Positions 1 to 17,323 of a DNA stretch of 22,108 bases are shown piece after piece (position 1 is the first letter of the stretch; each line of letters opens with the position of its first letter). The stretch comes from Gemmatales bacterium (lineage in GTDB: Bacteria; Planctomycetota; Planctomycetia; Gemmatales; Gemmataceae): positions 1 through 22,108 of the forward strand of contig JBBRPS010000052.1 in NCBI GenBank assembly GCA_038227745.1, given 5' to 3'. Under the pieces are notes generated by a model, which saw nothing but the letters and a program-made list of their open reading frames with translations, ran no database searches and had not been told where the DNA came from. The translations under genes were made by a program, and so were the position numbers.

Positions 1-38
1 GAAAAAAAGAAAGACAGAAAGCGGCGCCGAGCGCCGCA
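1..38 (-). terminator. Rho-independent terminator-like hairpin. GCGGCGC-CGA-GCGCCGC at 21-37; on the minus strand it is followed by TTTCTGTCTTTCTTTTTTTC (complement of 1-20).
   Basis: Seen in sequence: 7-bp GC stem with a 3-nt loop at 21-37, then an A-rich run on the + strand, which is a T-run on the - strand. It lies about 130 nt downstream of the stop of the minus-strand ATPase-SPFH gene. Confidence 0.5.
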
Positions 39-167: not shown

Positions 168-3545
<3,378 letters not shown>

Positions 3546-4784: not shown

Positions 4785-5291
4785 ATGTCCCTGACCGATT
4801 CCCCGGCCCGGCCCAACGGCGGCGCCCGGCCGACCACCGAGAACGCTTTCCGCGAGCTGATCCGGACCTTCGGCCTGGTCGAGCGCGTGATGCACCCGCA
4901 CTTCGCCCGCTTCGGCATCACGCCATCGCAGTGGGGCGTGCTGCGCAACCTCCACCGGGCCGAACAGGAAGGTATCCCGTCCCTCCGCCTGACCGAGCTG
5001 AGCGAACGGCTGCTGATCCGCCCGCCCAGCGTCACCGGCCTGGTGGACCGCCTGGAGCGGGCCAGGCTCGTCACGCGCGACGGCTCGCCCACCGACCTGC
5101 GCGCCAAGCAGGTGGGCCTGACGAAGGCCGGACGCCGTCTCGTCGAGCGCGTCCTCGCCGTCCACGAGGGCCACGTCAACACGGTCCTCACCGGGCTCAA
5201 CCCCGAGGAGCAGCGCGAGCTGCACCGGCTGCTCGTGCTCTGGCGCAAACACCTGGAAGGCCTGCTCGACGGAACCGCGGACGCGGTCTGA
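4785..5291 (+). CDS. MarR-family transcriptional regulator (winged HTH), 168 aa.
   Basis: The translation has the typical MarR core (…FGITPSQWGVLRNLHRAEQEG…LTELSERLLIRPPSVTGLVDRLERARLVTR…DLRAKQVGLTKAGRRLVE…) at the typical length. It is followed by efflux genes. Confidence 0.9.
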   Translation: MSLTDSPARPNGGARPTTENAFRELIRTFGLVERVMHPHFARFGITPSQWGVLRNLHRAEQEGIPSLRLTELSERLLIRPPSVTGLVDRLERARLVTRDGSPTDLRAKQVGLTKAGRRLVERVLAVHEGHVNTVLTGLNPEEQRELHRLLVLWRKHLEGLLDGTADAV

Positions 5292-6706: not shown

Positions 6707-6711
6707 CGTCC

Positions 6712-6794
6712 CCGTTTAGCCGCGGTTCGGAGAACCGCGTGCTGCGCGACCTGGGATGCAGCCCGACGCGGTTCTGCGAACCGCGGCTAAACGT
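6712..6794. repeat. Palindromic extragenic repeat, composite copy: GTTTAGCCGCGGTTC-GGA-GAACCGCG, a 27-nt spacer, then CGCGGTTC-TGC-GAACCGCGGCTAAAC.
   Basis: Seen in sequence. The two arms are reverse complements and each arm contains its own hairpin. The termini match the elements at 12918-12995 and 14401-14437. It lies in the adaptor-to-ATPase intergenic spacer. Confidence 0.6.
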
Positions 6795-6818: not shown

Positions 6819-7532
<714 letters not shown>

Positions 7533-7557: not shown

Positions 7558-8940
7558 ATGAGAGCCTTCTACCGCACCACGCTGATGGCCTTCAAGGCGC
7601 TGCGGCGCAACATCATGCGCTCGGCGCTGACGACCCTCGGCATCGTCATCGGCGTGGCGGCCGTCATCGCCATGACCGAGATCGGCCAGGGCACCAACAC
7701 CGCCGTGCAGCGCACCATCAAGAGCATGGGCGCCGACAACCTGCTCATCCAGCCCGGCACCGCGTCCAGCGGCGGCGTCAGCTTCGGCAGCGGCTCGGTG
7801 TTCACGCTCACGCCGCAGGACAGCGACGCCATCCTCCGCGAGTGCCCCGCCGTCGCCGAGGTCGCCCCCATCGTCCGCGCCCGCACCCAGGTCGTCTACG
7901 GCAACCGCAACTGGGTGCCGGTGTACATCTACGGCACCACGCCGTCCTTCCTCAAGGTCCGCGACTGGGAGGACCTGGAGGAGGGCGAGGGGTTCACCGA
8001 CCAGGACGTGCGCAACGGCACCGCGGTCTGCGTCCTCGGCCAGACCATCGTGCGCGAGCTGTTCGCCGACGAGTCGGCGATCGGCAAGGAGGTCCGCGTC
8101 CAGAACGTGACCTTCCGCGTGGTCGGCGTGCTGAGCAAGAAGGGCGCCAACATGATGGGCGTCGATCAGGACGACATCCTGCTCGCCCCGTGGCGGACGA
8201 TCAAGTACCGCGTGTCGGGCACGTCGGCGAGTACGGCCAACCAGAGCGCCGCCGCCGCTACCACCGACCCCTCGCAGAAGGTCAACAGCCTCAGCGGCCT
8301 CTACCCCAACCAGGGGACGAGCCTGTACCAGACGCCAACGCCGACCCAGGTGGCCGACACGCCGCAGCCGATCCGCTTCACGAACGTCGATCAGATCCTC
8401 TGCAAGGCCGCCTCGACCAAGGAAATCGACCTGGCGATCAAGCAGATCACGGAACTGCTGCACGAGCGGCACCGCATCAAGACGGGGCAGCCCGACGACT
8501 TCAGCATCCGCAACATGACCGAGATGAGCAAGGCGCTGGGCTCGACGTCGCAGACGATGACGCGGTCGCTGCTGTTCGTGGCGCTGGTGTCGCTGGTGGT
8601 CGGCGGCGTGGGCATCATGAACATCATGCTCGTGTCGGTGACCGAGCGGACGCGCGAGATCGGCCTGCGCATGGCGGTCGGCGCCCGGGCGCGCGACATC
8701 CTGCGGCAGTTCTTGGTCGAGGCGGTGGTGCTGTGCATGATGGGCGGCCTGATCGGCATCCTGCTGGGGCGCGGCGTGGCGGTCCTGGTGCGGGTGTCGC
8801 TGGGCTGGCCGACGGAGATTTCGGTCCTGGCGATGGTCGGCGCGGTGGTGGTGTCGGCCGGCGTCGGCATGATCTTCGGCTACTACCCGGCGTGGAAGGC
8901 GTCGCGCCTCGACCCGATCGAGGCCCTGCGCTACGAGTGA
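7558..8940 (+). CDS. ABC transporter permease, MacB-like: four TM helices, a large periplasmic domain and a C-terminal FtsX domain; 460 aa.
   Basis: MRAFYRTTLMAFKALRRNIMRSALTTLGIVIGVAAVIAM… gives TM1, a ~250-aa periplasmic domain follows, and the C-terminus has three TM helices (…LFVALVSLVVGGVGIMNIMLVSVTERTREIGLRMAVGA…). The RBS is AGGAGTGAG. Confidence 0.9.
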   Translation: MRAFYRTTLMAFKALRRNIMRSALTTLGIVIGVAAVIAMTEIGQGTNTAVQRTIKSMGADNLLIQPGTASSGGVSFGSGSVFTLTPQDSDAILRECPAVAEVAPIVRARTQVVYGNRNWVPVYIYGTTPSFLKVRDWEDLEEGEGFTDQDVRNGTAVCVLGQTIVRELFADESAIGKEVRVQNVTFRVVGVLSKKGANMMGVDQDDILLAPWRTIKYRVSGTSASTANQSAAAATTDPSQKVNSLSGLYPNQGTSLYQTPTPTQVADTPQPIRFTNVDQILCKAASTKEIDLAIKQITELLHERHRIKTGQPDDFSIRNMTEMSKALGSTSQTMTRSLLFVALVSLVVGGVGIMNIMLVSVTERTREIGLRMAVGARARDILRQFLVEAVVLCMMGGLIGILLGRGVAVLVRVSLGWPTEISVLAMVGAVVVSAGVGMIFGYYPAWKASRLDPIEALRYE

Positions 8941-8994
8941 GGATGCCCCCGACCCAGGCTGCGTAGTTCCCGAGATGCCTTGCAGCCGGCGACA

Positions 8995-9897
8995 TCACTC
9001 CTGCGGCAGGACGGCCCGGAACTCTGCCCAGGAGGTGGCGGCAAGGGCGGCATCGAACCAGCCATCCAGGATCGCGAGGTCGTTGGTCCCTTCGATAGCC
9101 AGTCGGATCGGCTCAGGGACAGGGGCTCCCAGACGCGACTGGAGAACACGGAGCATGTCCGCCCGCCGCGCGCGCACCTCGCCCCTGGCTTCGATGCTCC
9201 TGGTGTATTGAGACTCTCTCACTTCCCAGCCCTCCAAATGACGCTGCCAGTTGACCTGTTGGGGAATCAGTTCTGCGAACACCAGGGCGAAGTAGCGGTA
9301 CGCCGCCCGCTTCTCCACGTCCGGCTCACCAGCCGCCAGCTGCTTCCAGCGCTCGATCATCTGGGGCTCCCCACCGCCACGCATGAGGACGACCCACGGC
9401 AGGATGCACAGGGCCAGTTCGCCCGACCCGATCCGCGCCAGCGTGTCCGCCGCGCTCTCGGCGGCCAGCCAGACCTCGATGGGCTTGACCAGCACGCCAG
9501 GGCTGCTCAGAGAGTGCGTCAGGAGCAACGGGCCGCGCCGGCTGGTCCCGGTCAGACGGAGGATCGCTCCGTAAACGGGACGGCCATCGTCCAGCACCCC
9601 GCGGACCTCGATCGCCAGCAGCAGTTCGTAGACGCCCAGTCGGGCCAGGTCATCCGGACGCGGTTCGGTTGCCACCTCCACGATCAGGTGCGCCGGCTTG
9701 CCGTCGGCCCGACGGCGCAGCACACAGACGACGTCATCGGTACGTTCGGGGCCGCCGGGCCAGGACGTTCGCCGGGTGTCGTCCCAGCCGGCAAAGTCCG
9801 CGGCCAGCGGCTCATCGGCAAAGCGCTCCAGCCACAGCGTCAGGCCGGCCCCGCTCACCTTGCACGCTTGACGCGCCGTCTCGTCGAACGTAGCCAT
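8995..9897 (-). CDS. Rpn/YhgA-like putative nuclease or transposase-family protein (PD-(D/E)xK-like) with a C-terminal DUF4351-like tail, 300 aa.
   Basis: The N-terminal core has the spacing …RTDDVVCVL…GKPAHLIVEVATEP…, compared from memory with the Rpn 'R-D…hllIEhQs' motif, but E-V-A replaces E-x-Q/K. The C-terminus, …EARGEVRARRADMLRVLQSRLGAPVPEPIRLAIEGTNDLAILDGWFDAALAATSWAEF, matches my memory of the DUF4351 pattern. I took the start at MATFDE (RBS GGGAGG 5 nt upstream) rather than the 9996 ORF start. Confidence 0.55.
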   Translation of the reverse strand: MATFDETARQACKVSGAGLTLWLERFADEPLAADFAGWDDTRRTSWPGGPERTDDVVCVLRRRADGKPAHLIVEVATEPRPDDLARLGVYELLLAIEVRGVLDDGRPVYGAILRLTGTSRRGPLLLTHSLSSPGVLVKPIEVWLAAESAADTLARIGSGELALCILPWVVLMRGGGEPQMIERWKQLAAGEPDVEKRAAYRYFALVFAELIPQQVNWQRHLEGWEVRESQYTRSIEARGEVRARRADMLRVLQSRLGAPVPEPIRLAIEGTNDLAILDGWFDAALAATSWAEFRAVLPQE

Positions 9898-10015
9898 GTT
9901 GGCCTCCCAGCCCAATTCTATCCTGGTGCGGCGCTCGAGCGGTAGGCCAACCCGCCCGCTGCGCAGGGCAACCCGGTGAGGTGAACCCGTTGCCAAGTTA
10001 TCCGCGGGCGGACGA

Positions 10016-10058
10016 CGAAAAAGCGCGGCGGAGGACAGACTTCTGTCCCCCGCCGCGC
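10016..10058 (-). terminator. Terminator-like hairpin: GCGCGGCGG(A)GGACAGA…TCTGTCC(C)CCGCCGCGC. On the minus strand it is followed by CTTTTTC.
   Basis: Seen in sequence: a stem of about 16 bp with a T-run on the minus strand. It sits in the 485-bp spacer between the secreted-protein gene and the Rpn-like gene, both on the minus strand. Confidence 0.45.
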
Positions 10059-10100
10059 TTCTGCTGCCTGCTCACGGCCGGCGCCGGTTCGTCTCGTTCC

Positions 10101-10170
10101 GCCGCCGCTGCTCATCCCGGCGGCGCTGCTCATCGGCCTGCCGGCGGCGCTGCTCGTCCTGACGGCGGCC
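10101..10170. repeat. Three imperfect tandem copies of a roughly 20-bp unit, GGCGGCGCTGCTC(A/G)TCC.
   Basis: Seen in sequence: gccgccgctgctcatcc / cggcggcgctgctcatcggcctg / ccggcggcgctgctcgtcctgacggcggcc. Confidence 0.4.
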
Positions 10171-10286
10171 CGATTCGTTGGAGGGGGGTGGGTGGAGAGG
10201 TGCGCGACGTATCGGCGCAAGAACAAGGCCTCAGAATCACTTTGAGAAAGGGATTCGTCGCAGCCCGGGAAGAAAAGGTGTCGGGC

Positions 10287-10352
10287 AAGAAAAGGCATCG
10301 GGAACTTTTGTCGCTATCAATTAGCGACAAAGGTTCCCGACGCCTTTTCTTC
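10287..10352 (-). terminator. Long hairpin: 30-bp stem (AAGAAAAGGCATCGGGAACTTTTGTCGCTA / TAGCGACAAAGGTTCCCGACGCCTTTTCTT) with a TCAATT loop. It lies 30 nt downstream of the stop of the minus-strand secreted-protein gene.
   Basis: Seen in sequence: 28/30 complementary bases (one G-U pair and one mismatch). On the minus strand it is followed by GCCCGACACCTTTTCTTCC. A related direct half-repeat, GAAAAGGTGTCGGGC, sits immediately upstream. It is likely a terminator or a 3' stability structure. Confidence 0.45.
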
Positions 10353-10381
10353 CGCGCGGGATCCCTCCCGGCGACGGCCGC

Positions 10382-11479
10382 CTACGTGGTTTGCGGGTTC
10401 GTGGCCGGCGTTGTGGTGAAGCTGAAGTTCACCGTTGCCGTCTGGACCGTGGTGGTGAGCTGCACGGTCTGCGACGACTGGTTGGTCGTGGTGTCGGTCG
10501 GCGGCACCGCGGTGACGGCGTACGCGGAGTACTGGCCGAAGTTGGTCGCCAGGTCGTTGAACGAGTAGTTGCCGTTCTGGTCCGTGTAGGTGAAGACCTC
10601 GTCGCCATCGAGCACGCCGTCGTGGTTGGCGTCGAGGAAAATCTGGACGCCCACCTGCGGGACCCCGTTGACGGTGACCGTCCCCTGGATGACGCCACTC
10701 GACGACGGCAGCTGGCTGGCGCCGGAGCTGGAGTTGGGGCCGGCGGCGGGCGCCCACTCCTCGAAGCCGCCGTTGCCCGCCAGGTTGACGCCGAACTTGG
10801 AGTACAGAGAGACGTACGGGTCGGTGCCGGTGAAGAGGGAGTCGGGCACGTACAGCAGCATGTCGCCCGAGCCGCTGCCGTGCGTCAGGCGGGCGTCGAG
10901 CTTGACCCAGTTGTCCACGCCGCCCGCGTCCAGGTCGTAGACCGGCGCCAGCCCCCCGAGCGTGTGGGCGCTGGCGTCGTAGCCCGACAGGTTCGGGGCG
11001 CCGCCGACGTACAGGCGCAGCTCATCGAGCGAGAGCAGGGGTTGCGAGCTCTTCTGGTTGATGTCGAGGAGGAAGACGCGGTAGAAGACGCCGCCGGCGT
11101 CCACCTTGGGCAGCTCATCGAGCTTCAGCGAGCGCGTGAAGGTCGGGCTCTTGTTCTCGTCGAACTGCAGGGGGCGGTTGTCGGTGTTGTAGCCCTGCTG
11201 GACGGTCTGCTTCGCGCCCTGCGCCTGCAGCCGGACGAAAGAATGGATCACGCCGGAGCCGGTGGGCTGGGTGGGGGTCTGGGCGAAGATCGCCCCGTTG
11301 ATGGAACCGCTGGCGCCCGCCGTGGTCAGGTCGAGCGGTGCGGCGCTCGGGACGGTCCGTTCCTCGAGGGATTCCAGCTGCAGTTGGGCCTTGGCGGGGG
11401 CCGGTTTCGTGCGCCGCGGGCGTTCGGACCGCAGCCAGCGCTTGAAAGACAACCAATCTTGCCAACGAGAGCCACTCAT
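10382..11479 (-). CDS. Secreted protein with a planctomycete-type N-terminal leader (…AKAQLQLESLEERTVPS…) and a C-terminal SdrD-B-like / Cna-B-type Ca-binding beta-sandwich domain, 365 aa.
   Basis: Start at MSGSRWQDWL (RBS GGAGGAACGGAG immediately upstream), not at the 11644 ORF start. The C-terminus reads GVIQGTVTVNGVPQVGVQIFLDANHDGVLDGDEVFTYTDQNGNYSFNDL, the DxNxDGxxD signature of SdrD B-like domains. The protein is Thr/Ser/Gly-rich and looks extracellular. Confidence 0.7.
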   Translation of the reverse strand: MSGSRWQDWLSFKRWLRSERPRRTKPAPAKAQLQLESLEERTVPSAAPLDLTTAGASGSINGAIFAQTPTQPTGSGVIHSFVRLQAQGAKQTVQQGYNTDNRPLQFDENKSPTFTRSLKLDELPKVDAGGVFYRVFLLDINQKSSQPLLSLDELRLYVGGAPNLSGYDASAHTLGGLAPVYDLDAGGVDNWVKLDARLTHGSGSGDMLLYVPDSLFTGTDPYVSLYSKFGVNLAGNGGFEEWAPAAGPNSSSGASQLPSSSGVIQGTVTVNGVPQVGVQIFLDANHDGVLDGDEVFTYTDQNGNYSFNDLATNFGQYSAYAVTAVPPTDTTTNQSSQTVQLTTTVQTATVNFSFTTTPATNPQTT

Positions 11480-11845
11480 CTCCGTTCCTCCGAAAAGAAC
11501 CGGGCGGGCGCACCCGACCCGGCGACCGTTAATCCCGGCAAGCCCGCGACGCACGCCGTTCCGCGCGGCGCGTCGCCACCTGGGCGACCGGGCTGTAGAA
11601 GACCTTTGGCAGGGCAGACCCGGCAGGATGGCGGACGATCCCAAATGATCGCACCGTGGTTTGCCGTCTCACCCGTGGGGGGCGGTGGCGCAGCTACCGC
11701 GCCGGTGCAGAGGCCGGTCACACGACCGGCCCGTTGAGGGGAGGGCAACGCCGCCGAACACATCCGGGGGAACCGGGAGGGAGTGGTCAGACAACCGCTT
11801 CGCAGGAAATATGGGAGAGGTTTGCCGCGTTGTCAAATCGGCGGC

Positions 11846-11878: not shown

Positions 11879-12895
11879 TTACGATTCGTCCTCCGCGTCG
11901 GCCCGGTGCCGGCGGCGCAACCGCTTCAACAGGGCGGCCATGTCGGGCGGCAGCGGCGCCGTCCACGACAGGTGCGCGCCGGTCACCGGGTGTTCCAGGC
12001 CGAGGCTGGCCGCGTGCAGCATCGGGCGGGCGGCGGCGCTGGCGTCGGGCAGTGGCCGGCCGTGCCGCGGCCGGTCGTAGACGCGCTCGCCGCACAGCGG
12101 CGTCCCCCGCTCGCCGAGGTGGATGCGTACCTGGTGCGTCCGTCCGGTCTCGAGCCGGCACTCCACGAGCGCGAAGTCGCCCAGGTCCTCGACGACGCGG
12201 ACGTGCGTCACCGCCCGCTGGCCCGCGCCCGGTTGGTCGGTGCTGCCGCGGCGGCCGTCGCCGCGGTCGGGGACGAGGTGCGACTCGATGCGCCCCGACT
12301 TCGGCCGGCCGCGCACCAGCGCGAGGTAACGCCGTTCGATCGTGTGCGCCCGGAACTGCTCGCCGAGTCGGCGCTCGGCCTCGGGGGTGCGCGCGAAGAC
12401 GACGAGGCCGCTCGTGTCCTTGTCGAGGCGGTGAACGGCGCGGACGCGGCCTTTCGTCTCCTTCTCCTGGGCGAGGAGTTCCGGCAGGAGATCTTGCAGT
12501 GTTTCGGGGAGGAAGCGGCGGCCGCGGGGGCCGAACTCGGCGGCCTCGTGGGCGTGGCGCATGGTGGTCAGGCCCGGCGGCTTGTCCACGACGACGAGGT
12601 GCGCGTCGGCGTGGCGGATCGCGGCGGCGCTCCGTTGTCCGTTGTCCGTTGTCCGTCGTGGGCGGGGGGCTTTTTTCTCCGTGGGGCGCGGCGCCTCGAC
12701 GATGTCCGCCTCGACGGCCTGGCCGGGGGACACGCGCCAGGACGGGTTGCGACAGAGGTTGCCCGCGAGGCGGACGCGGCACTGGCGGACGAGGTCGCGC
12801 GCGGCCGCGGCGGAGAGGTGGAGGTGGGCCTTGAGCAGCGCAGCGACCGTCCGCCCGGACTCTTTACGGGAGACAACGAAGCGCCGCGTGGCCAT
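11879..12895 (-). CDS. RluA-family 23S rRNA pseudouridine synthase (RluC/RluD-like) with an N-terminal S4 RNA-binding domain, 338 aa.
   Basis: The catalytic motif HRLDKDTSGLVVFART sits downstream of an S4-like N-terminus (RTVAALLKAHLHLSAAAARDLVRQCRVRLAGN), and …TGRTHQIRIHL is present. An unusual linker (…RRTTDNGQRS…) is encoded by a heptamer repeat. Confidence 0.85.
   Translation of the reverse strand: MATRRFVVSRKESGRTVAALLKAHLHLSAAAARDLVRQCRVRLAGNLCRNPSWRVSPGQAVEADIVEAPRPTEKKAPRPRRTTDNGQRSAAAIRHADAHLVVVDKPPGLTTMRHAHEAAEFGPRGRRFLPETLQDLLPELLAQEKETKGRVRAVHRLDKDTSGLVVFARTPEAERRLGEQFRAHTIERRYLALVRGRPKSGRIESHLVPDRGDGRRGSTDQPGAGQRAVTHVRVVEDLGDFALVECRLETGRTHQVRIHLGERGTPLCGERVYDRPRHGRPLPDASAAARPMLHAASLGLEHPVTGAHLSWTAPLPPDMAALLKRLRRRHRADAEDES
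12631..12658. repeat. Heptanucleotide microsatellite (TCCGTTG) x3 plus one imperfect copy (TCCGTCG), inside the pseudouridine synthase CDS.
   Basis: Seen in sequence: tccgttgtccgttgtccgttgtccgtcg. The unit length is 7, so it is not a multiple of 3. Confidence 0.7.
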
Positions 12896-12917
12896 CGGTT
12901 TGCTCGGGACGTTCCGA

Positions 12918-12995
12918 GTTTAGCCGCGAGCGGTGAGCCAGATCCCGCGCTCGCCCCCCGCATAGCGGGATCTGACTCACCGCTCGCGGCTAAAC
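12918..12995. repeat. Palindromic extragenic repeat, long form: GTTTAGCCGCGAGCGGTGAGCCAGATCCCGC, a 16-nt loop, then GCGGGATCTGACTCACCGCTCGCGGCTAAAC.
   Basis: Seen in sequence. The 31-nt arms are reverse complements with one mismatch. It abuts the stop codon of the 12996-14318 gene and lies 22 bp from the rluA-like start. Its termini are shared with the 6712 and 14401 elements. Confidence 0.6.
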
Positions 12996-14318
12996 TCAGG
13001 GCCTGGTGAAGAGGCTGTCTTCCAGGCGGTTGAAGTAGTGCGTCTCGGTCGTTTCCAGGTCCATGAACAGTTGCCCGTCGCGGTAGAGGCTGGAGCGCAT
13101 CGACAGGCGCAGGCCCTCGATGGCGAGGCGCCGCCAACCCTGCTTGAGGTAGGCGCCGCCGTCCTTGCCGAGCGCCGCCTCGGCGAACGCCCGCCGCTTG
13201 GCGTCGCGGTCCTTCAGCGCCTTGACGAGCACCGGATCCTGTTTGTCCGGGGCGCCGGCGACCGCGGCCAGGGCGCCCTTCACCTCGCGCGTCACCGTCT
13301 CGTCGGGCGCCCACGGCGCGTAATCCAGCAGCACCTCCGCCGCCCCCGCCGGGCGCCGCAGCGCCACCAGGCGCACCACCGACGCGGCCAGCGTTTGCTC
13401 CTGGTTGATGTGCTCCAGGCACTGCTCCGCCCGCCGCGCCACCTCGCGGTCCGCGTCGCGCAGCGCGTCGCGCAGCAGCGCCGCCGCCTTGACGCCCGCC
13501 GCCTTGAGCGCCGCCGTCGCCCGCTGCCGCACGCTGAACGACTTGTGCCCGAGCTTGATGACCAGGTCCTTGAGCCGGACCTGCTCCTTCTCGTCGGGCG
13601 TCTGCCGGCGCAGGAAGTCCAGCAGGGCCGGGCCGTCCACGGCGACCTTCGCCCCCTTGAGGATCTGCACGTCTACCTCGGCGGGGTCGAGCACGCGATA
13701 ATCGAGGTGGTAAACCTCCTGCAAGACCTCGCGGTTGAGGTTCGGGTCCATCACGCGGTTGGCCGACTTGGCGAGCAGGCCGGTCTCCCTGTCGAACCAG
13801 AGGGAGACGTCCGGCTTGCCTTCCTTCTGCACCTTCAGACCGTGGCACGCGGTGCCCTTGACCTGGCTCTCGCCAAGGGAGGTCAGGGTGTAGCCCTTGT
13901 CCTTGACGAGTGTGACGAGGCTGCAGACGCGGTCGGCGTAGGCGGACTTGCGGATGCGGTCGAGGAAGGCGGCGTCGAGGTCGTAGGTGACGCCGTCGTA
14001 GCTGATCCAGCCCTTGTCGTCGCCGACCATCACGAGGGTGCGCGTGGCGGACACGTCCTTGATGGTGCCGCGCAGGGTGATGCGGCGGCGGTTGCCGGTT
14101 TCGCTGAAGCTCTCGCCGGTGAAAGTGAAACCGTCGGTGTGGAAGGTGCCCTTGCTCTTGCGGTAGGCGGCGACCTTCAGGTTGAGCTTGTCCAGGCCGC
14201 CCATGGCCTTGATGGCCTTCTCGATGAGGGCGCGCGGCTCCGGCTGCTGGGCGCGGGCGGCGGTCCCCAGCCCAAGCAAGAGCGCGCCGGCCAGCACGGA
14301 CGACAGGAACTTGCCCAT
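12996..14318 (-). CDS. Secreted or periplasmic protein: signal peptide, an N-terminal domain I read (unverified) as LolA/RseB-like beta-sheet, and C-terminal HEAT / PBS-lyase-like repeats; 440 aa.
   Basis: The leader is MGKFLSSVLAGALLLGLGTAARAQ. The C-terminal half has repeated …LRDALRDADREVARRAEQCL… / …LVKALKDRDAKRRAFAEAAL… units. The RBS GGAGGG is 5 nt upstream of the ATG. Confidence 0.7.
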   Translation of the reverse strand: MGKFLSSVLAGALLLGLGTAARAQQPEPRALIEKAIKAMGGLDKLNLKVAAYRKSKGTFHTDGFTFTGESFSETGNRRRITLRGTIKDVSATRTLVMVGDDKGWISYDGVTYDLDAAFLDRIRKSAYADRVCSLVTLVKDKGYTLTSLGESQVKGTACHGLKVQKEGKPDVSLWFDRETGLLAKSANRVMDPNLNREVLQEVYHLDYRVLDPAEVDVQILKGAKVAVDGPALLDFLRRQTPDEKEQVRLKDLVIKLGHKSFSVRQRATAALKAAGVKAAALLRDALRDADREVARRAEQCLEHINQEQTLAASVVRLVALRRPAGAAEVLLDYAPWAPDETVTREVKGALAAVAGAPDKQDPVLVKALKDRDAKRRAFAEAALGKDGGAYLKQGWRRLAIEGLRLSMRSSLYRDGQLFMDLETTETHYFNRLEDSLFTRP

Positions 14319-14400
14319 GACAACCCTCCGAGGTGTGGAATCCCGAACCGCGGCCCTCAGAGGTTAGGGTAAAGCAGCGGGGGGACGGAGTCAACGAGTT

Positions 14401-14437
14401 CCGTTTAGCCGCGGTTCTGCGAACCGCGGCTAAACGG
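14401..14437. repeat. Palindromic extragenic repeat, minimal form: CC-GTTTAGCCGCGGTTC-TGC-GAACCGCGGCTAAAC-GG, a perfect 17-bp stem.
   Basis: Seen in sequence. It lies between the ftsK stop (14446) and the start of the upstream gene (14318). Confidence 0.65.
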
Positions 14438-14445
14438 GTCGGGCA

Positions 14446-16692
14446 TCAGCCGCTCTTCTTGACTTCCTCCCAGTGCTCCGGCGTGTACAGCACCTCGCGG
14501 GCGTTGCTGCCGTTGTACGGGCCGACGATGCTGTCCTCCGCCATGAAGTCGATGAAGCGTGCCGCCTTGCCGTAGCCGATCGCCATGGCCCGCTGCAGCA
14601 GCGACACACTGCCGCGCCCCTCGCGCACCACAATCTCCACCGCCTGCTCGTACAGCGGGTCGCGCTCGCGCAGCCGCTCCAGGAAACCGCCCTCGCCGGC
14701 CCCGGCGGTCCGCAGCTCCAGCAGCTCCTGCGCGTAGCACGGCTCGCACTCCAGGTGCTTCACCACGCGCGAGATCTCGCCGTCGCTGGCGTAGGTGCCC
14801 TGGGCCCGCACCAGCGAACTCGTCCCCGGCTGCAGGAACAGCATGTCGCCCTTGCCGAGCAGCTTGTCGGCGCCCATCTCGTCCAGCACCACGCGGCTGT
14901 CCGTCCGGCACGACACCTGGAAGCAGATGCGCGCCGGCAGGTTCGACTTGATCAGGCCCGTGATGACGTCCACCGTCGGCTTCTGCGTCGCCACGATCAG
15001 GTGAATCCCCGCGGCCCGCGACTTCTGCGCCAGGCGGATAATATGGCTCTCCATCTCGCGCTTCATCTGCATCATCAGGTCGCCGACCTCGTCCACGATC
15101 AGAACGATGTACGGCATCCGCTCGGGGATCTGGTCGCGCTCGTGATCGTCGGCGGGCCGGACGCGGCGCAGCACCTCCTCCTTGCCCAGCTCGTTGTACG
15201 CCGCGATGTTCCGCACCCGCGCCCGGCTGAGGAGGTCGTAGCGCTCCTCCATCTTGTCCACCGCCCACGACAGGATCGCCTCGGCCTTCTTGGCGTCGAG
15301 GACGACCGGGTGCATCAGGTGCGGCAGCTTGCCGAACTCGATCAGCTCGGTGCGCTTGGGGTCGATCAGGATCAGCTTCACCTGGTCGGGGCGGCGCGTC
15401 ATCAAAATGCTGAGGATGACCGCGTTGAGGCAGACCGACTTGCCGGTGCCGGTGCGGCCGGCGATGAGCAGGTGCGGCATCTCGGCGAGATCGTGGACGA
15501 GCGGCCGGCCCTCGGTGTCCTTGCCGAGGAAGAGGGGGATGCGGGCCTTGACCACCTTCTTACCGGCGCCGAGGATGACGTCCTTGAGGCGGACCTCGGC
15601 GCGGTGCTCGTTGGGCACCTCGACGCCGACGGTATTCTTGCCGGGGATCGGCGCGACGATGCGCACGCTCGGCACACACAGGTTCAGGGCGATGTCGTCG
15701 CCCAGGCCGGTGACCTTGTTGACGCGCAGGCCCGTCTCCAGGGCGATCTCGTACTGCGAGATGACCGGGCCGGTGTTGATGCCGACGACGCGGACGTTCA
15801 GACCGAAGTCGGTGAACGTCTTTTCCAGCAGGGCGGCCTGGTCGCGCAGGTGCTGGTCGTGCTCGTCGTAGGGAAAGGGAGCGGCGTCCTCCAGGAGCGA
15901 GAGCGGCGGCAGCTCGTAGTCGTCGAAGCTCGGCTCCTCGGACGCCGGGCCGGGGCGGACAATGCGTAACGGCGGCACCGCGGTCGGCTCGGGGCGCTTC
16001 TTGCCCGGCGTGGTCGGGGCGGGTGCCGCCGCCGACACGACGGAATGGCGGATCGGGATGGCCGCATCGTCCGGCGACGCCTCCTCGTCGGGCTCGCTCT
16101 CCGCGCCGGGCTCGTCCCGCGCGGGCTCGGGGCCGGCCTTCACGGCGGCGAGGCCGGCGAAAGCCCGCGCAGCCCAGCGGCAGGTCCGCCACAGCAGGCG
16201 GAGCGAGCGGACGAGGACGGCATCGGCGGCGAGGGCGAGGGCGAGCAGGGCGACGCCCGCGACGAGGAAGAAGCGGGCCGCCGGCTCGAAATGGTCCTCC
16301 AGCCAGGCGCCGACCCAGGCGCCGAGCGCGCCGCCGCTGCCGGCGAGGACGTCCGGGCCGAGGGCGTCGGCGATGACCGCGGCACAGGGCACGAGCAGCA
16401 GCCAGCCCGCGAGCCGCCGGGACCAGGTGAAAAGGCACTGGCGCAGGAAGAGCAGTAACACCAGCACGAACCAGGTCGCAAGCAGGGGGTAGACGGCGGC
16501 GCCGAGGGCGTCGTAGAGTGCCTCCGCCAGCCAGGCGCCGGGGGCGCCGAGAAGGTTGGTCGGCTCGGGCGGTGGGTAGAGCAGGGCGGCGGACGGCGCC
16601 TCCTGGGTGAGGACGCACACGGCGACGAGGAAGCCGGCGAGCAGCAGCCCCCAGGCGAGGAAATCGAGGTGCGCGCCGCGGCGGTCGGCCAT
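14446..16692 (-). CDS. ftsK: DNA translocase FtsK/SpoIIIE: N-terminal TM helices, linker, AAA+ motor and a C-terminal gamma winged-helix; about 749 aa.
   Basis: Motor motifs …LIAGRTGTGKSVCLNAVILSIL… (Walker A) and …VLIVDEVGDLMM… (Walker B). The gamma domain is …GSVSLLQRAMAIGYGKAARFIDFMAEDSIVGPYNGSNAREVL. I chose the start at MADRRGAHLDFLAWGLLL (GGAG 9 nt upstream) because the remaining ORF extension to 17205 is R/P-rich; the start is uncertain. Confidence 0.85.
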   Translation of the reverse strand: MADRRGAHLDFLAWGLLLAGFLVAVCVLTQEAPSAALLYPPPEPTNLLGAPGAWLAEALYDALGAAVYPLLATWFVLVLLLFLRQCLFTWSRRLAGWLLLVPCAAVIADALGPDVLAGSGGALGAWVGAWLEDHFEPAARFFLVAGVALLALALAADAVLVRSLRLLWRTCRWAARAFAGLAAVKAGPEPARDEPGAESEPDEEASPDDAAIPIRHSVVSAAAPAPTTPGKKRPEPTAVPPLRIVRPGPASEEPSFDDYELPPLSLLEDAAPFPYDEHDQHLRDQAALLEKTFTDFGLNVRVVGINTGPVISQYEIALETGLRVNKVTGLGDDIALNLCVPSVRIVAPIPGKNTVGVEVPNEHRAEVRLKDVILGAGKKVVKARIPLFLGKDTEGRPLVHDLAEMPHLLIAGRTGTGKSVCLNAVILSILMTRRPDQVKLILIDPKRTELIEFGKLPHLMHPVVLDAKKAEAILSWAVDKMEERYDLLSRARVRNIAAYNELGKEEVLRRVRPADDHERDQIPERMPYIVLIVDEVGDLMMQMKREMESHIIRLAQKSRAAGIHLIVATQKPTVDVITGLIKSNLPARICFQVSCRTDSRVVLDEMGADKLLGKGDMLFLQPGTSSLVRAQGTYASDGEISRVVKHLECEPCYAQELLELRTAGAGEGGFLERLRERDPLYEQAVEIVVREGRGSVSLLQRAMAIGYGKAARFIDFMAEDSIVGPYNGSNAREVLYTPEHWEEVKKSG

Positions 16693-17032
16693 GTCGGGAA
16701 CTCCGGGTGCGGTCTCCGAGGGGCAGCGCCTGGTAGGGCGCATCATGGGTCTATCATCGCCGAGGGCCGCCCCGATTCGCTGGGAAAACCGCGGAAACGG
16801 CGCCTCACGCAACGATGTCAAGGGGCACAACAAGCAGGATCGATATTCCCGGCATCGCGCTCTTCGAGGCGCTGCGCCAGCTGCATACGTGGTAAAGTCG
16901 GCGGGCGGGCGAAGCTGCGGGGCGGCCTCGGGGTGGACCCGGGCGCCGCGGGGACCGATGAAAGAGCGGGCGTGTTCGCGTGACTCGCCCAGGCTGTGCA
17001 TCTGTCCCCGCCCACGGAGGCCCCCAACCCGC

Positions 17033-17323
17033 ATGGACGTTGTATCCCTCCCGACGCTCGACGAGCTGCGCCGCCACGTCCTGCGGACGCTGTGCTCGAA
17101 GGACCACCTCGACCCCGCCCAGACGCCGCTGCTGCAGTCGATCGTGACGCGCCGCGGTCGGCCGTGTGGCCTGTTCTTCCAGGTGCAGGGGCCGCGCATG
17201 CTCAAGACGTACGCCGTCTGGGCCGGCGAGGAGAACCGCCTGCTCTTCTACGACTCGACCGGCGTGCGCTTCGCGGAGTGCCGCCTGAGCGAGGGGCCCG
17301 ACCCGCTCAAGCTGGCGGCGTGA
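17033..17323 (+). CDS. Hypothetical protein, 96 aa.
   Basis: MDVVSLPTLDELRRHVLRTLCSKDHLDPAQTPLLQSIVTRRGRPCGLFFQVQGPRMLK… has balanced composition, and the SD ACGGAGG is about 11 nt upstream. The upstream part of the 16607 ORF is Arg-rich junk. I recognise no family. It occupies the slot upstream of rpmF where yceD/DUF177 often sits, but it does not resemble YceD. Confidence 0.5.
   Translation: MDVVSLPTLDELRRHVLRTLCSKDHLDPAQTPLLQSIVTRRGRPCGLFFQVQGPRMLKTYAVWAGEENRLLFYDSTGVRFAECRLSEGPDPLKLAA

Follow-up and report, generated by a model that had tools for sequence, protein, structure and literature searches.

What are the long palindromes that stand just behind stop codons in a 22-kb stretch of planctomycete DNA, and how did they come to be there? 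The stretch, called the window below, is one entire NCBI contig (JBBRPS010000052.1 of assembly GCA_038227745.1, from a Gemmatales bacterium; 22,108 bp, G+C ~70%), and its gene content is that of an ordinary chromosome. Its palindromes share an 11-nt terminus, GTTTAGCCGCG. The reading favoured here, with a probability of about 0.68, is that they are repeats of the repetitive extragenic palindromic (REP) or REPIN (REP doublet forming a hairpin) type, akin to the hairpins that accompany a small 'class 3' of HUH-Y1 proteins and dispersed via an enzyme of that class. The family looks, from its sequence, like a previously unlisted branch of the class 3 HUH-associated repeats.

The window has six occurrences of the 11-mer where shuffled sequences predict 0.46, and the six sites are both ends of three palindromes (6714–6792, 12918–12995 and 14403–14435). 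The complete pattern GTTTAGCCGCG…CGCGGCTAAAC has three matches, against 0.00 expected. Together with one decayed relative, these make up the four copies or variants of the original prediction, far more than shuffling would produce:

6712–6794, between the stop of an HlyD-family gene (6706) and the start of a MacB-type ATPase gene (6819): composite inverted dimer
12916–12997: long inverted dimer of a divergent subfamily, with 33-nt arms (GTTTAGCCGCGAGCGGTGAGCCAGATCCCGC and its complement) and a centre of 16 nt
14401–14437: minimal 'double-foot' form, one hairpin CGCGGTTC-TGC-GAACCGCG with a foot GTTTAGC on each side
77–153: decayed copy of the long form, with right arm and centre conserved and left arm degraded

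Predicted hairpin energies are −63 kcal/mol for the copy at 6714, −73 to −79 kcal/mol for that at 12918 and −34 kcal/mol for that at 14403, with z-scores of −6.4 to −11.7 and high stability on both strands. The inverted arms returned by a repeat finder are 33 nt long and 97% complementary in the long form; those of the composite form have 28 nt and 96% complementarity. Cross-matches from the same finder link the copies at 6711 and 14410.

The composite dimer has a left arm (6714–6739) made of the foot GTTTAGC and the hairpin CGCGGTTC-GGA-GAACCGCG, a unique centre of 27 nt (6740–6766), and a right arm (6767–6792) that is the same unit on the opposite strand with the loop GCA. The hairpin that had been proposed to lie nested in each arm of this 83-nt form is indeed there (CGCGGTTC-GGA/TGC-GAACCGCG, at 6721–6739 and 6767–6785). 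The window's copies belong to two variant subfamilies. The first combines the foot with a perfect 8-bp hairpin, CGCGGTTC-G(G/C)A-GAACCGCG, and is present as the dimer at 6714 and as the single hairpin with a foot on both sides at 14403. The 33-mer of this 'double-foot' form recurs, identical, at locus L067 of another planctomycete metagenome-assembled genome (MAG), and a sister form of the 8-bp hairpin, CGCGGTCC-GAA-GGACCGCG, is found at L109. The second subfamily has the longer divergent arm and is found at 12918 and 77–153.

The decayed copy matches the right half of the long form, as had been judged by eye: 113–151 is 90% identical to 12955–12993, and the arm at 123–145 is identical to the long form's left arm. 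Its foot has two changes, so that it now reads GGTTCGCCGCG, and its left half is mostly eroded. The two copies are alike in arm and centre, while their outer flanks are unrelated, and they therefore descend from one dimer that is now at two different loci. Segmental duplication is ruled out by the unrelated flanks of the copies, which are independent insertions and not parts of one duplicated segment.

The basic unit of the family is not the long hairpin, it is a single arm of ~26–28 nt. In most of the family, each arm consists of the foot GTTTAGC followed by CGC-GA, a mini-hairpin (a stem of 2–3 bp on a G-N-A loop) and GA-GCG, with tandem G·A mismatches below the mini-hairpin. Two arms in inverted orientation, feet outward, around a short centre make the long palindrome. 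The family was assembled by scanning bacteria and archaea, each species represented by one genome, for the two termini 11–71 nt apart, which yields lower bounds; the counts given here rest on 130 palindromes from the window and the 115 loci listed, 128 of them without masked bases. At these loci, 263 of 286 11-mers (92%) are in inverted pairs. The foot (Y)CGTTTAGC, in full (Y)C-GTTTAGC, is present in all copies, though the identity of the 11-nt terminus at both ends is partly imposed by the search pattern. Both arms have the form GTTTAGC-CGCGA-mini-hairpin-GAGCG in 86 of 128 dimers. The most frequent mini-hairpins are:

CCC-GAA-GGG, 44 arms
GC-TTTT-GC, 16 arms
CCC-GCA-GGG, 11 arms
GC-TTCT-GC, 10 arms
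CGC-GCA-GCG, 9 arms
GCC-GTA-GGC, 8 arms

There are also many rarer variants, mostly with a 2–3 bp stem on a G-N-A loop.

With DNA energy parameters, a single arm folds on its own into an unpaired foot and the structure (((..(((...)))..))). Across 35 distinct 26-nt arms the pairing is 96.7%, compared to 85.7% in shuffled sets (none of 500 reached the observed value), and it drops to 21–61% when the partners are slid by 1–3 columns. Double changes are found within the mini-stem: one pair is CG in 17 arms and GC in 16, and the next is CG in 26, GC in 3 and UA in 2. The outer CGC/GCG pairs were fixed by the way the arms were selected and carry no evidence of covariation. DNA mini-hairpins are stabilised by tandem G·A pairs and by G-N-A triloops with a closing C-G pair. 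The presence of these features fits a unit that acts as a single-stranded DNA substrate.

The two arms of a dimer need not be alike. Their mini-hairpins differ in 34 of the 86 dimers, and some copies (L042 at 5066, L077, L007) are chimeras of two subfamilies, in which the long stem is broken and both small hairpins are kept. Half copies also occur among the listed loci. Among 83 canonical dimers, 81 have a unique centre, and centres are 0–33 nt long. Outside the feet, position −1 is C in 67% of copies and position −2 is T or C; there is no conservation beyond. At L051 (1544–1700), single right arms (…CGCGCTCGCCTTCGGCTCGCGGCTAAACGCAAAGTTCC…) are arranged in tandem with a 38-nt period, adjoining a complete dimer.

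The original prediction had suggested an element of REP or MITE (a miniature transposable element with inverted repeats) type. As MITEs, the repeats would be deletion derivatives of a DDE-type insertion sequence, with terminal inverted repeats starting GTTTAGCCGCG, moved by cut and paste. Like such elements, the repeats are small, have perfect terminal inverted repeats and are dispersed in many copies, but target-site duplications are absent (115 of 128 copies lack any common flanking base), arms of different subfamilies mix in one element, half copies and tandem arrays of single arms exist, and the fetched loci contain no transposase open reading frame (ORF) with these ends. A MITE origin is thus very improbable. 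The REP half of the suggestion stands – these are dispersed extragenic palindromes at the 3' ends of genes – while the MITE half does not, for lack of target-site duplications and because the arm is the unit.

Copies beyond the window, for which the original prediction had called, are numerous. At least 115 DNA stretches have the paired termini, and these come from no fewer than 53 species-level assemblies. Among the matches listed, 51 of 53 assemblies are labelled Planctomycetota, from several families and two classes; the carriers include Gemmataceae/Gemmatales, Isosphaera, Singulisphaera, Planctomycetaceae, Pirellulales, and Phycisphaerae including Tepidisphaeraceae. The other two are MAGs deposited as Anaerolineales and Alphaproteobacteria, and the sample of the latter was also the source of several planctomycete bins. 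Many blocks come from single genomes (at least 15 from CAWIEZ01 and at least 13 from CAVXNL01). A virus catalogue had paired termini in two contigs only, and a plasmid collection had no copies of the planctomycete type. Assembly artefact is ruled out as a source of the termini, which were found in independent assemblies from NCBI, JGI and the read archive (Logan).

The window copies all lie just 3' of stop codons, in agreement with the original prediction: 7 nt past the HlyD-family stop, 0 nt past that of a HEAT-repeat gene, 10 nt past that of ftsK and ~15 nt past that of a P-type ATPase gene. The copy said to abut a stop codon is the long dimer, which directly adjoins that of the HEAT-repeat gene (12996–12998) and lies 22 nt upstream of the start of an RluD-like gene (12895), both genes being on the minus strand. 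The 'double-foot' copy follows the ftsK stop (14446), also on the minus strand. The composite copy had been thought to displace the start of the ABC ATPase gene, and it does: the ATG at 6756, which opens the longest ORF of the MacB-type ATPase, is within the palindrome, alignment to homologues sets in only at residue 24 of this ORF, and the true start is therefore ATG 6819, with 21 extra codons as an artefact. The Pfam ABC domain begins 23 residues past the ATG at 6819.

The same arrangement is found across the family. With a crude gene caller based on codon-position G+C, applied to the 115 loci and the window (130 copies), the repeats are placed as follows:

between tandem genes, 67 copies
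between convergent genes, 26 copies
between divergent genes, 12 copies
inside a called ORF, 7 copies
at a locus edge, 18 copies

Most copies inside ORFs are near the 5' end of the call and look like the start-extension artefact at 6756. The median distance past the upstream stop is 16 nt for tandem and 7 nt for convergent genes. In ~9 copies the distance is −6, where the TAG within GTTTAG would be the stop codon.

Such placement raises the question of whether the repeats are RNA structures selected by the host at gene 3' ends – tail-less terminators, barriers to 3' exonucleases or hairpins that decouple operons, perhaps with a planctomycete RNA-binding protein that reads the GUUUAGCCGCG stem base – and have spread only secondarily. 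The short median distances past stop codons (7–16 nt), the scarcity of copies in divergent spacers and the ~9 copies whose own TAG would serve as a stop are in keeping with this, as are the very stable RNA hairpins on both strands and a symmetry that suits either direction of transcription. Several observations fit it poorly. No T/U tail follows the hairpin, and there is no Rfam family: the window has no matches in Rfam 15 at gathering thresholds, and an E-value search of six related loci gave only spurious sub-threshold microRNA-hairpin matches for the repeats. Covariation is in the small hairpin of the arm and chimeras break the long stem, so a single-stranded unit is the better fit; the G-N-A triloops and tandem G·A pairs are likewise typical of stable DNA mini-hairpins. 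A host-selected RNA structure is on these grounds unlikely. Unrelated to the repeats is an S-adenosylmethionine (SAM) riboswitch at L008 (7294–7406, minus strand; 86 bits, E = 5e-19), a locus of a planctomycete MAG.

As for the terminator function proposed in the original prediction, canonical termination is not supported: there is no T-tract, the flank composition is flat except at −1 and −2, and a terminator scanner flags none of the copies. Intrinsic terminators are likewise G+C-rich hairpins soon after a stop, but they have a T-tract, while the planctomycete repeat has none and its stem sequence is conserved across species. The decayed copy has the P-type ATPase stop (168) on one side and a classical T-tailed terminator on the other, so the repeat is not the terminator at that site:

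1–37, minus strand: intrinsic-terminator-like hairpin GCGGCGC-TCG-GCGCCGC with a T-rich tail (37→21), downstream of the decayed copy

Four contigs (49 kb) that encode FtsK proteins 73–76% identical to that of the window contain no copy anywhere, and none after ftsK; two of the four (L201 and L202) encode one FtsK protein, from two assemblies. This absence means that the repeat is not a conserved cis-element of particular genes, and it too counts against a host-selected RNA structure. Two of these relatives have hairpins of other kinds after ftsK. In L203 (8680–8790; FtsK 75% identical), a different long palindrome of G/C runs, CCCCTCCCC…GGGGAGGGG, follows ftsK and is itself followed by TTTT; the site after ftsK attracts other kinds of hairpin there.

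The closest known relatives of the arm are hairpins described by Quentin et al. (2018; BMC Genomics 19:475, PMC6006769), who set apart a small group of HUH-Y1 proteins (TnpA_Y1) as class 3; these are related to IS200 transposases and to REP-associated tyrosine transposases (RAYTs). Class 3 genes are reported mainly from Planctomycetes, Acidobacteria and Proteobacteria, and the hairpins that flank them are atypical, with CnGA as the foot; Solibacter usitatus has ~600 of these hairpins. Hairpins in Table S1 of that paper include CCGAGCCGCGACCGTAAGGGAGCGGA of Legionella, CCGAGCCGCGACTGTCAAGGAGCGGTTG of Solibacter and CACGAGCCGGAAGCGTGAGCGACGGGT of Planctomyces limnophilus. The exact 11-mer GTTTAGCCGCG was in no relevant paper found by a literature search. 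The original claim of an undescribed family is correct to the extent that the GTTTAGCCGCG form was not found in the literature, and does not hold for the core, which matches the class 3 REP-like sequences (PMC6006769).

Kinship of the arm with the class 3 hairpins is evident from sequence comparison. Their core, A-GCCGC-GA-stem-loop-stem-GA-GCG(G), and its fold are the same as in the planctomycete arm (AGCCGCGA-stem-loop-GAGCG), and GTTT lies 5' of the core in both. Both are intergenic and high in copy number, and the taxa in which both are found are Planctomycetes, Acidobacteria and Legionella. The differences are in the foot, which is GTTTC-N-G-A in class 3 (published as 'CnGA') and GTTT-A in the planctomycete family; in the loop, GTNA in class 3 and mostly 3 nt (GAA, GCA, GTA) here; and in arrangement, since the planctomycete copies are nearly all feet-outward inverted dimers, unlike the published class 3 hairpins. 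The window subfamily keeps GCCGCG…CGCGGC and has G-C pairs where class 3 has G·A mismatches. When the virus catalogue was searched for the class 3 core, 69 contigs of 56–68% G+C were returned, and 123 class 3 type copies in these gave the upstream consensus Y-G-T-T-T-C-N-GAGCCGCGA. By this consensus (GTTTC-N-GAGCCGCGA), the planctomycete foot GTTT-AGCCGCGA is the class 3 foot without 'CnG', with the GTTT and the final A in common. 'Double-foot' REPs can come from a central deletion in an inverted dimer (PMC6006769), and loss of the centre from a dimer would fit the 33-nt 'double-foot' form in the window.

Canonical class 3 hairpins, often as feet-outward pairs, also share planctomycete loci with the GTTTAGC family. 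Pairs of the form CnGA-GCCGCGACC-GTNA-GGGAGCGG are at:

L046, 608 and 643
L050, 72 and 114
L072, 7085 and 7115
L095, 7921 and 7953

Further canonical class 3 hairpins are at L015, L041 and L115. In L123, a phage contig with terminase, portal and capsid genes, class 3 type hairpins form tandem intergenic arrays (1300–1760 and 4930–5160) of 3–5 units of 67–69 nt, all on one strand, which flank a block of ~3.3 kb. Similar arrays are found in L161, L153, L158 and L175. At first sight their spacing resembles that of clustered regularly interspaced short palindromic repeats (CRISPR), but they are repeats of a REP unit and a linker. Class 3 type hairpins lie beside ordinary genes in Legionella adelaidensis, where single copies were found in intergenic spacers of 'plasmids' 8, 9, 11 and 13 of strain NCTC12735 in PLSDB (L188–L190, L193–L195). 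These 'plasmids' contain an atp operon and genes for ribosomal proteins, mutS, a nrdA-type reductase subunit and tRNA, and look like mislabelled chromosome fragments.

This wider distribution bears on another account, in which the repeats would be binding sites, in inverted pairs, of a DNA-binding host protein – a nucleoid or topology factor as at the bacterial interspersed mosaic elements (BIMEs) of E. coli, or the reader of a tag like an uptake sequence – with selection acting on the 11-mer. The terminus is invariant across two classes, in part because the search pattern imposed it, and inverted pairs after genes recall the uptake sequences of Neisseria. Uptake sequences, though, also occur singly and in coding DNA, whereas 263 of the 286 11-mers here are paired and almost none lie in genes. 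Conservation also runs through a structured, covarying hairpin, and the hairpin core is found with another foot in Acidobacteria-type phage contigs and in Legionella. Selection for a protein-binding site of this kind is quite improbable.

The reading as class 3 type repeats could be realised as follows. An HUH-Y1 enzyme of class 3, with its gene at another place in the genome, would bind the arm hairpin in single-stranded DNA and cut and rejoin at the foot, so that units would be copied to new intergenic sites; most of these would lie immediately 3' of stop codons, a position at which insertions are presumably tolerated. The model for such copying is provided by the RAYT/REP and IS200/IS608 systems. 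Once transcribed, the long hairpin would probably also block 3' exonucleases or uncouple neighbouring cistrons. The family has what characterises REPs, namely an extragenic, imperfect palindromic unit of 26–28 nt and inverted pairs that form a larger hairpin.

The HUH step is the weakest link of this reading, and a number of results weigh against it. The ~1.55 Mb of fetched loci contained no HUH-Y1 gene by motif patterns or by phmmer with IS608 TnpA, so that the enzyme's part rests on one paper and on DNA similarity. When 749 neighbouring genes were clustered, all that emerged were families common in planctomycetes (ABC ATPase, DUF1501, DUF1559, FHA, kinases), and no transposase is near the class 3 hairpins in the L. 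adelaidensis neighbourhoods. The foot is neither the GT[AG]G tag of REPs nor the CnGA of class 3, and G·A mismatches are absent from the copies in the window. The unique centre in 81 of 83 copies is not what simple copying of whole doublets would predict. The tight clustering after stop codons could reflect a selected RNA function and not tolerance of insertions. The copy number in the source genome was seen through one 22-kb contig.

Other searches around the enzyme were also negative. An HUH pattern match in L065 was an out-of-frame artefact. Class 3 motifs, back-translated and scanned over the virus catalogue, gave no matches and then four false positives in a helicase, and the PDB held enzymes of the IS200/IS605 type only. 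The genes between closely spaced copies encode an esterase, a ThiS-like and a ThiF-like protein.

Arms that are near-identical within a genome around unique centres could possibly arise by fold-back copying of a single arm, by insertion of a second unit beside the first, or by repeated breakage and repair at the tip of the palindrome. A bolder proposal would be that a domesticated class 3 HUH enzyme has preserved one small hairpin module of single-stranded DNA (GTTT…AGCCGCGA-stem-GNA loop-GAGCG) near-invariant in Planctomycetota, in Acidobacteriota-type phages and in Legionella, and that the planctomycete arm, not the doublet, replicates, with dimers rebuilt locally (e.g. through fold-back copying, or because the centre is broken and repaired again and again). 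This is speculative and somewhat unlikely. If true, replication at the level of the arm would explain why arms are near-identical within a genome and centres unique, and propagation would be unlike that of Pseudomonas REPINs.

The genes of the window around the repeats are:

168–3545, minus strand: P-type (E1-E2) ATPase with HAD hydrolase and C-terminal SPFH/Band 7 domains, one ORF of 1125 aa
5315–6706: HlyD-family adaptor
6819–7532, plus strand: MacB-type ABC ATPase, with corrected start
11879–12895, minus strand: RluD-like pseudouridine synthase
12996–14318, minus strand: HEAT-repeat protein
14446–17205, minus strand: FtsK, longest ORF 919 aa

A permease gene to go with the MacB-type ATPase, a MarR regulator, PlsX, an acyltransferase and a second ABC system are also encoded. 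The fusion of a P-type ATPase and SPFH in a single ORF is unusual. The nearest named relatives of FtsK (66–73% identity) are labelled Gemmataceae. The deposited FtsK protein has 748 aa and its relatives have ~750–780 aa, compared to 919 aa for the longest ORF, of which the first ~170 codons are probably untranslated.

The HEAT-repeat gene lies between ftsK and the rluD-like gene and is flanked by the palindromes at 14403–14435 and 12918–12995. In the P0012 contig (FtsK 68% identical), a PseudoU_synth_2 gene directly follows ftsK at a distance of 35 nt; the HEAT-repeat gene may be an insertion in the window or may have been lost in this relative. A metagenome scan with the HEAT-repeat protein gave only two short contigs with 30–34% identity. 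The only other assembly with this gene is L001 (Logan SRR19962015_40132, 1465 bp, equivalent to 12966–14430 of the window). Its ends fall within both palindromes, which fits an assembly graph broken at repeated or palindromic k-mers.

A large inverted repeat unrelated to the family is found at 10282–10356 (arms of 35 nt, 89% complementary, lower G+C), between an A-rich run on the upstream side and CCTTTTCTT on the downstream side. The stop of a minus-strand gene (10382–11644) is 26 nt away, and the repeat lies past it. It looks like a bidirectional intrinsic terminator, and a terminator scanner flags its inner part (10298–10340). It lies within ~1.4 kb (8940–10380) that have no convincing gene: the ORFs at 8980–9945 (plus strand), 8995–9996 (minus strand) and 9981–10568 (plus strand) had no Pfam match and failed the codon-position G+C filter.

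REP families and their HUH enzymes are known almost only from Proteobacteria, and class 3 is barely studied and has no biochemistry. A conserved and easily searched DNA partner across Planctomycetota is a concrete substrate for tests of class 3 enzymes. Dimers with unique centres and chimeric arms allow the REPIN model to be tested, as to whether the doublet or the single arm replicates. Repeats near stop codons inside operons (HlyD/MacB, ftsK/HEAT/rluD) could alter expression; repeats also mislead gene callers, as at the ABC ATPase start, and may break short-read assemblies, as at the ends of L001. The features that set the family apart are its conserved 11-nt terminus, its presence in at least two classes of one phylum and its near-obligatory feet-outward dimer. 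No new principle follows unless arm-level propagation is true; the family is useful for work on HUH enzymes and REPINs and for planctomycete annotation.

Among known systems of similar appearance, CRISPR was ruled out, the copies being isolated and not in arrays. Integron attC sites are likewise imperfect palindromes of 50–130 nt after genes, with ends containing AAC/GTT. Their cores read RYYYAAC…GTTRRRY, the reverse of the order here (GTTTAGC…GCTAAAC), and they have extrahelical bases, while the stems here are perfect, the neighbours are housekeeping genes and there is no integrase or cassette array; attC was ruled out by the reversed core order and the housekeeping context.

REPINs and RAYTs of Pseudomonas were reportedly described by Bertels and Rainey in 2011. 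Like the planctomycete repeats, Pseudomonas REPINs and the REP/BIME elements of E. coli are short imperfect palindromes whose inverted doublets fold into a longer hairpin (PMC3733652). They are also extragenic and concentrated at the 3' ends of genes, with several subfamilies per genome, and 'double-foot' forms arise among them by central deletion of a dimer, as proposed here. They differ in three respects. REPs carry a GT[AG]G tag that the planctomycete family lacks; a REPIN is thought to be copied whole, whereas the spacer between the planctomycete units is unique in almost every copy; and REPINs are shared at the level of a genus, while the planctomycete family is common to a phylum.

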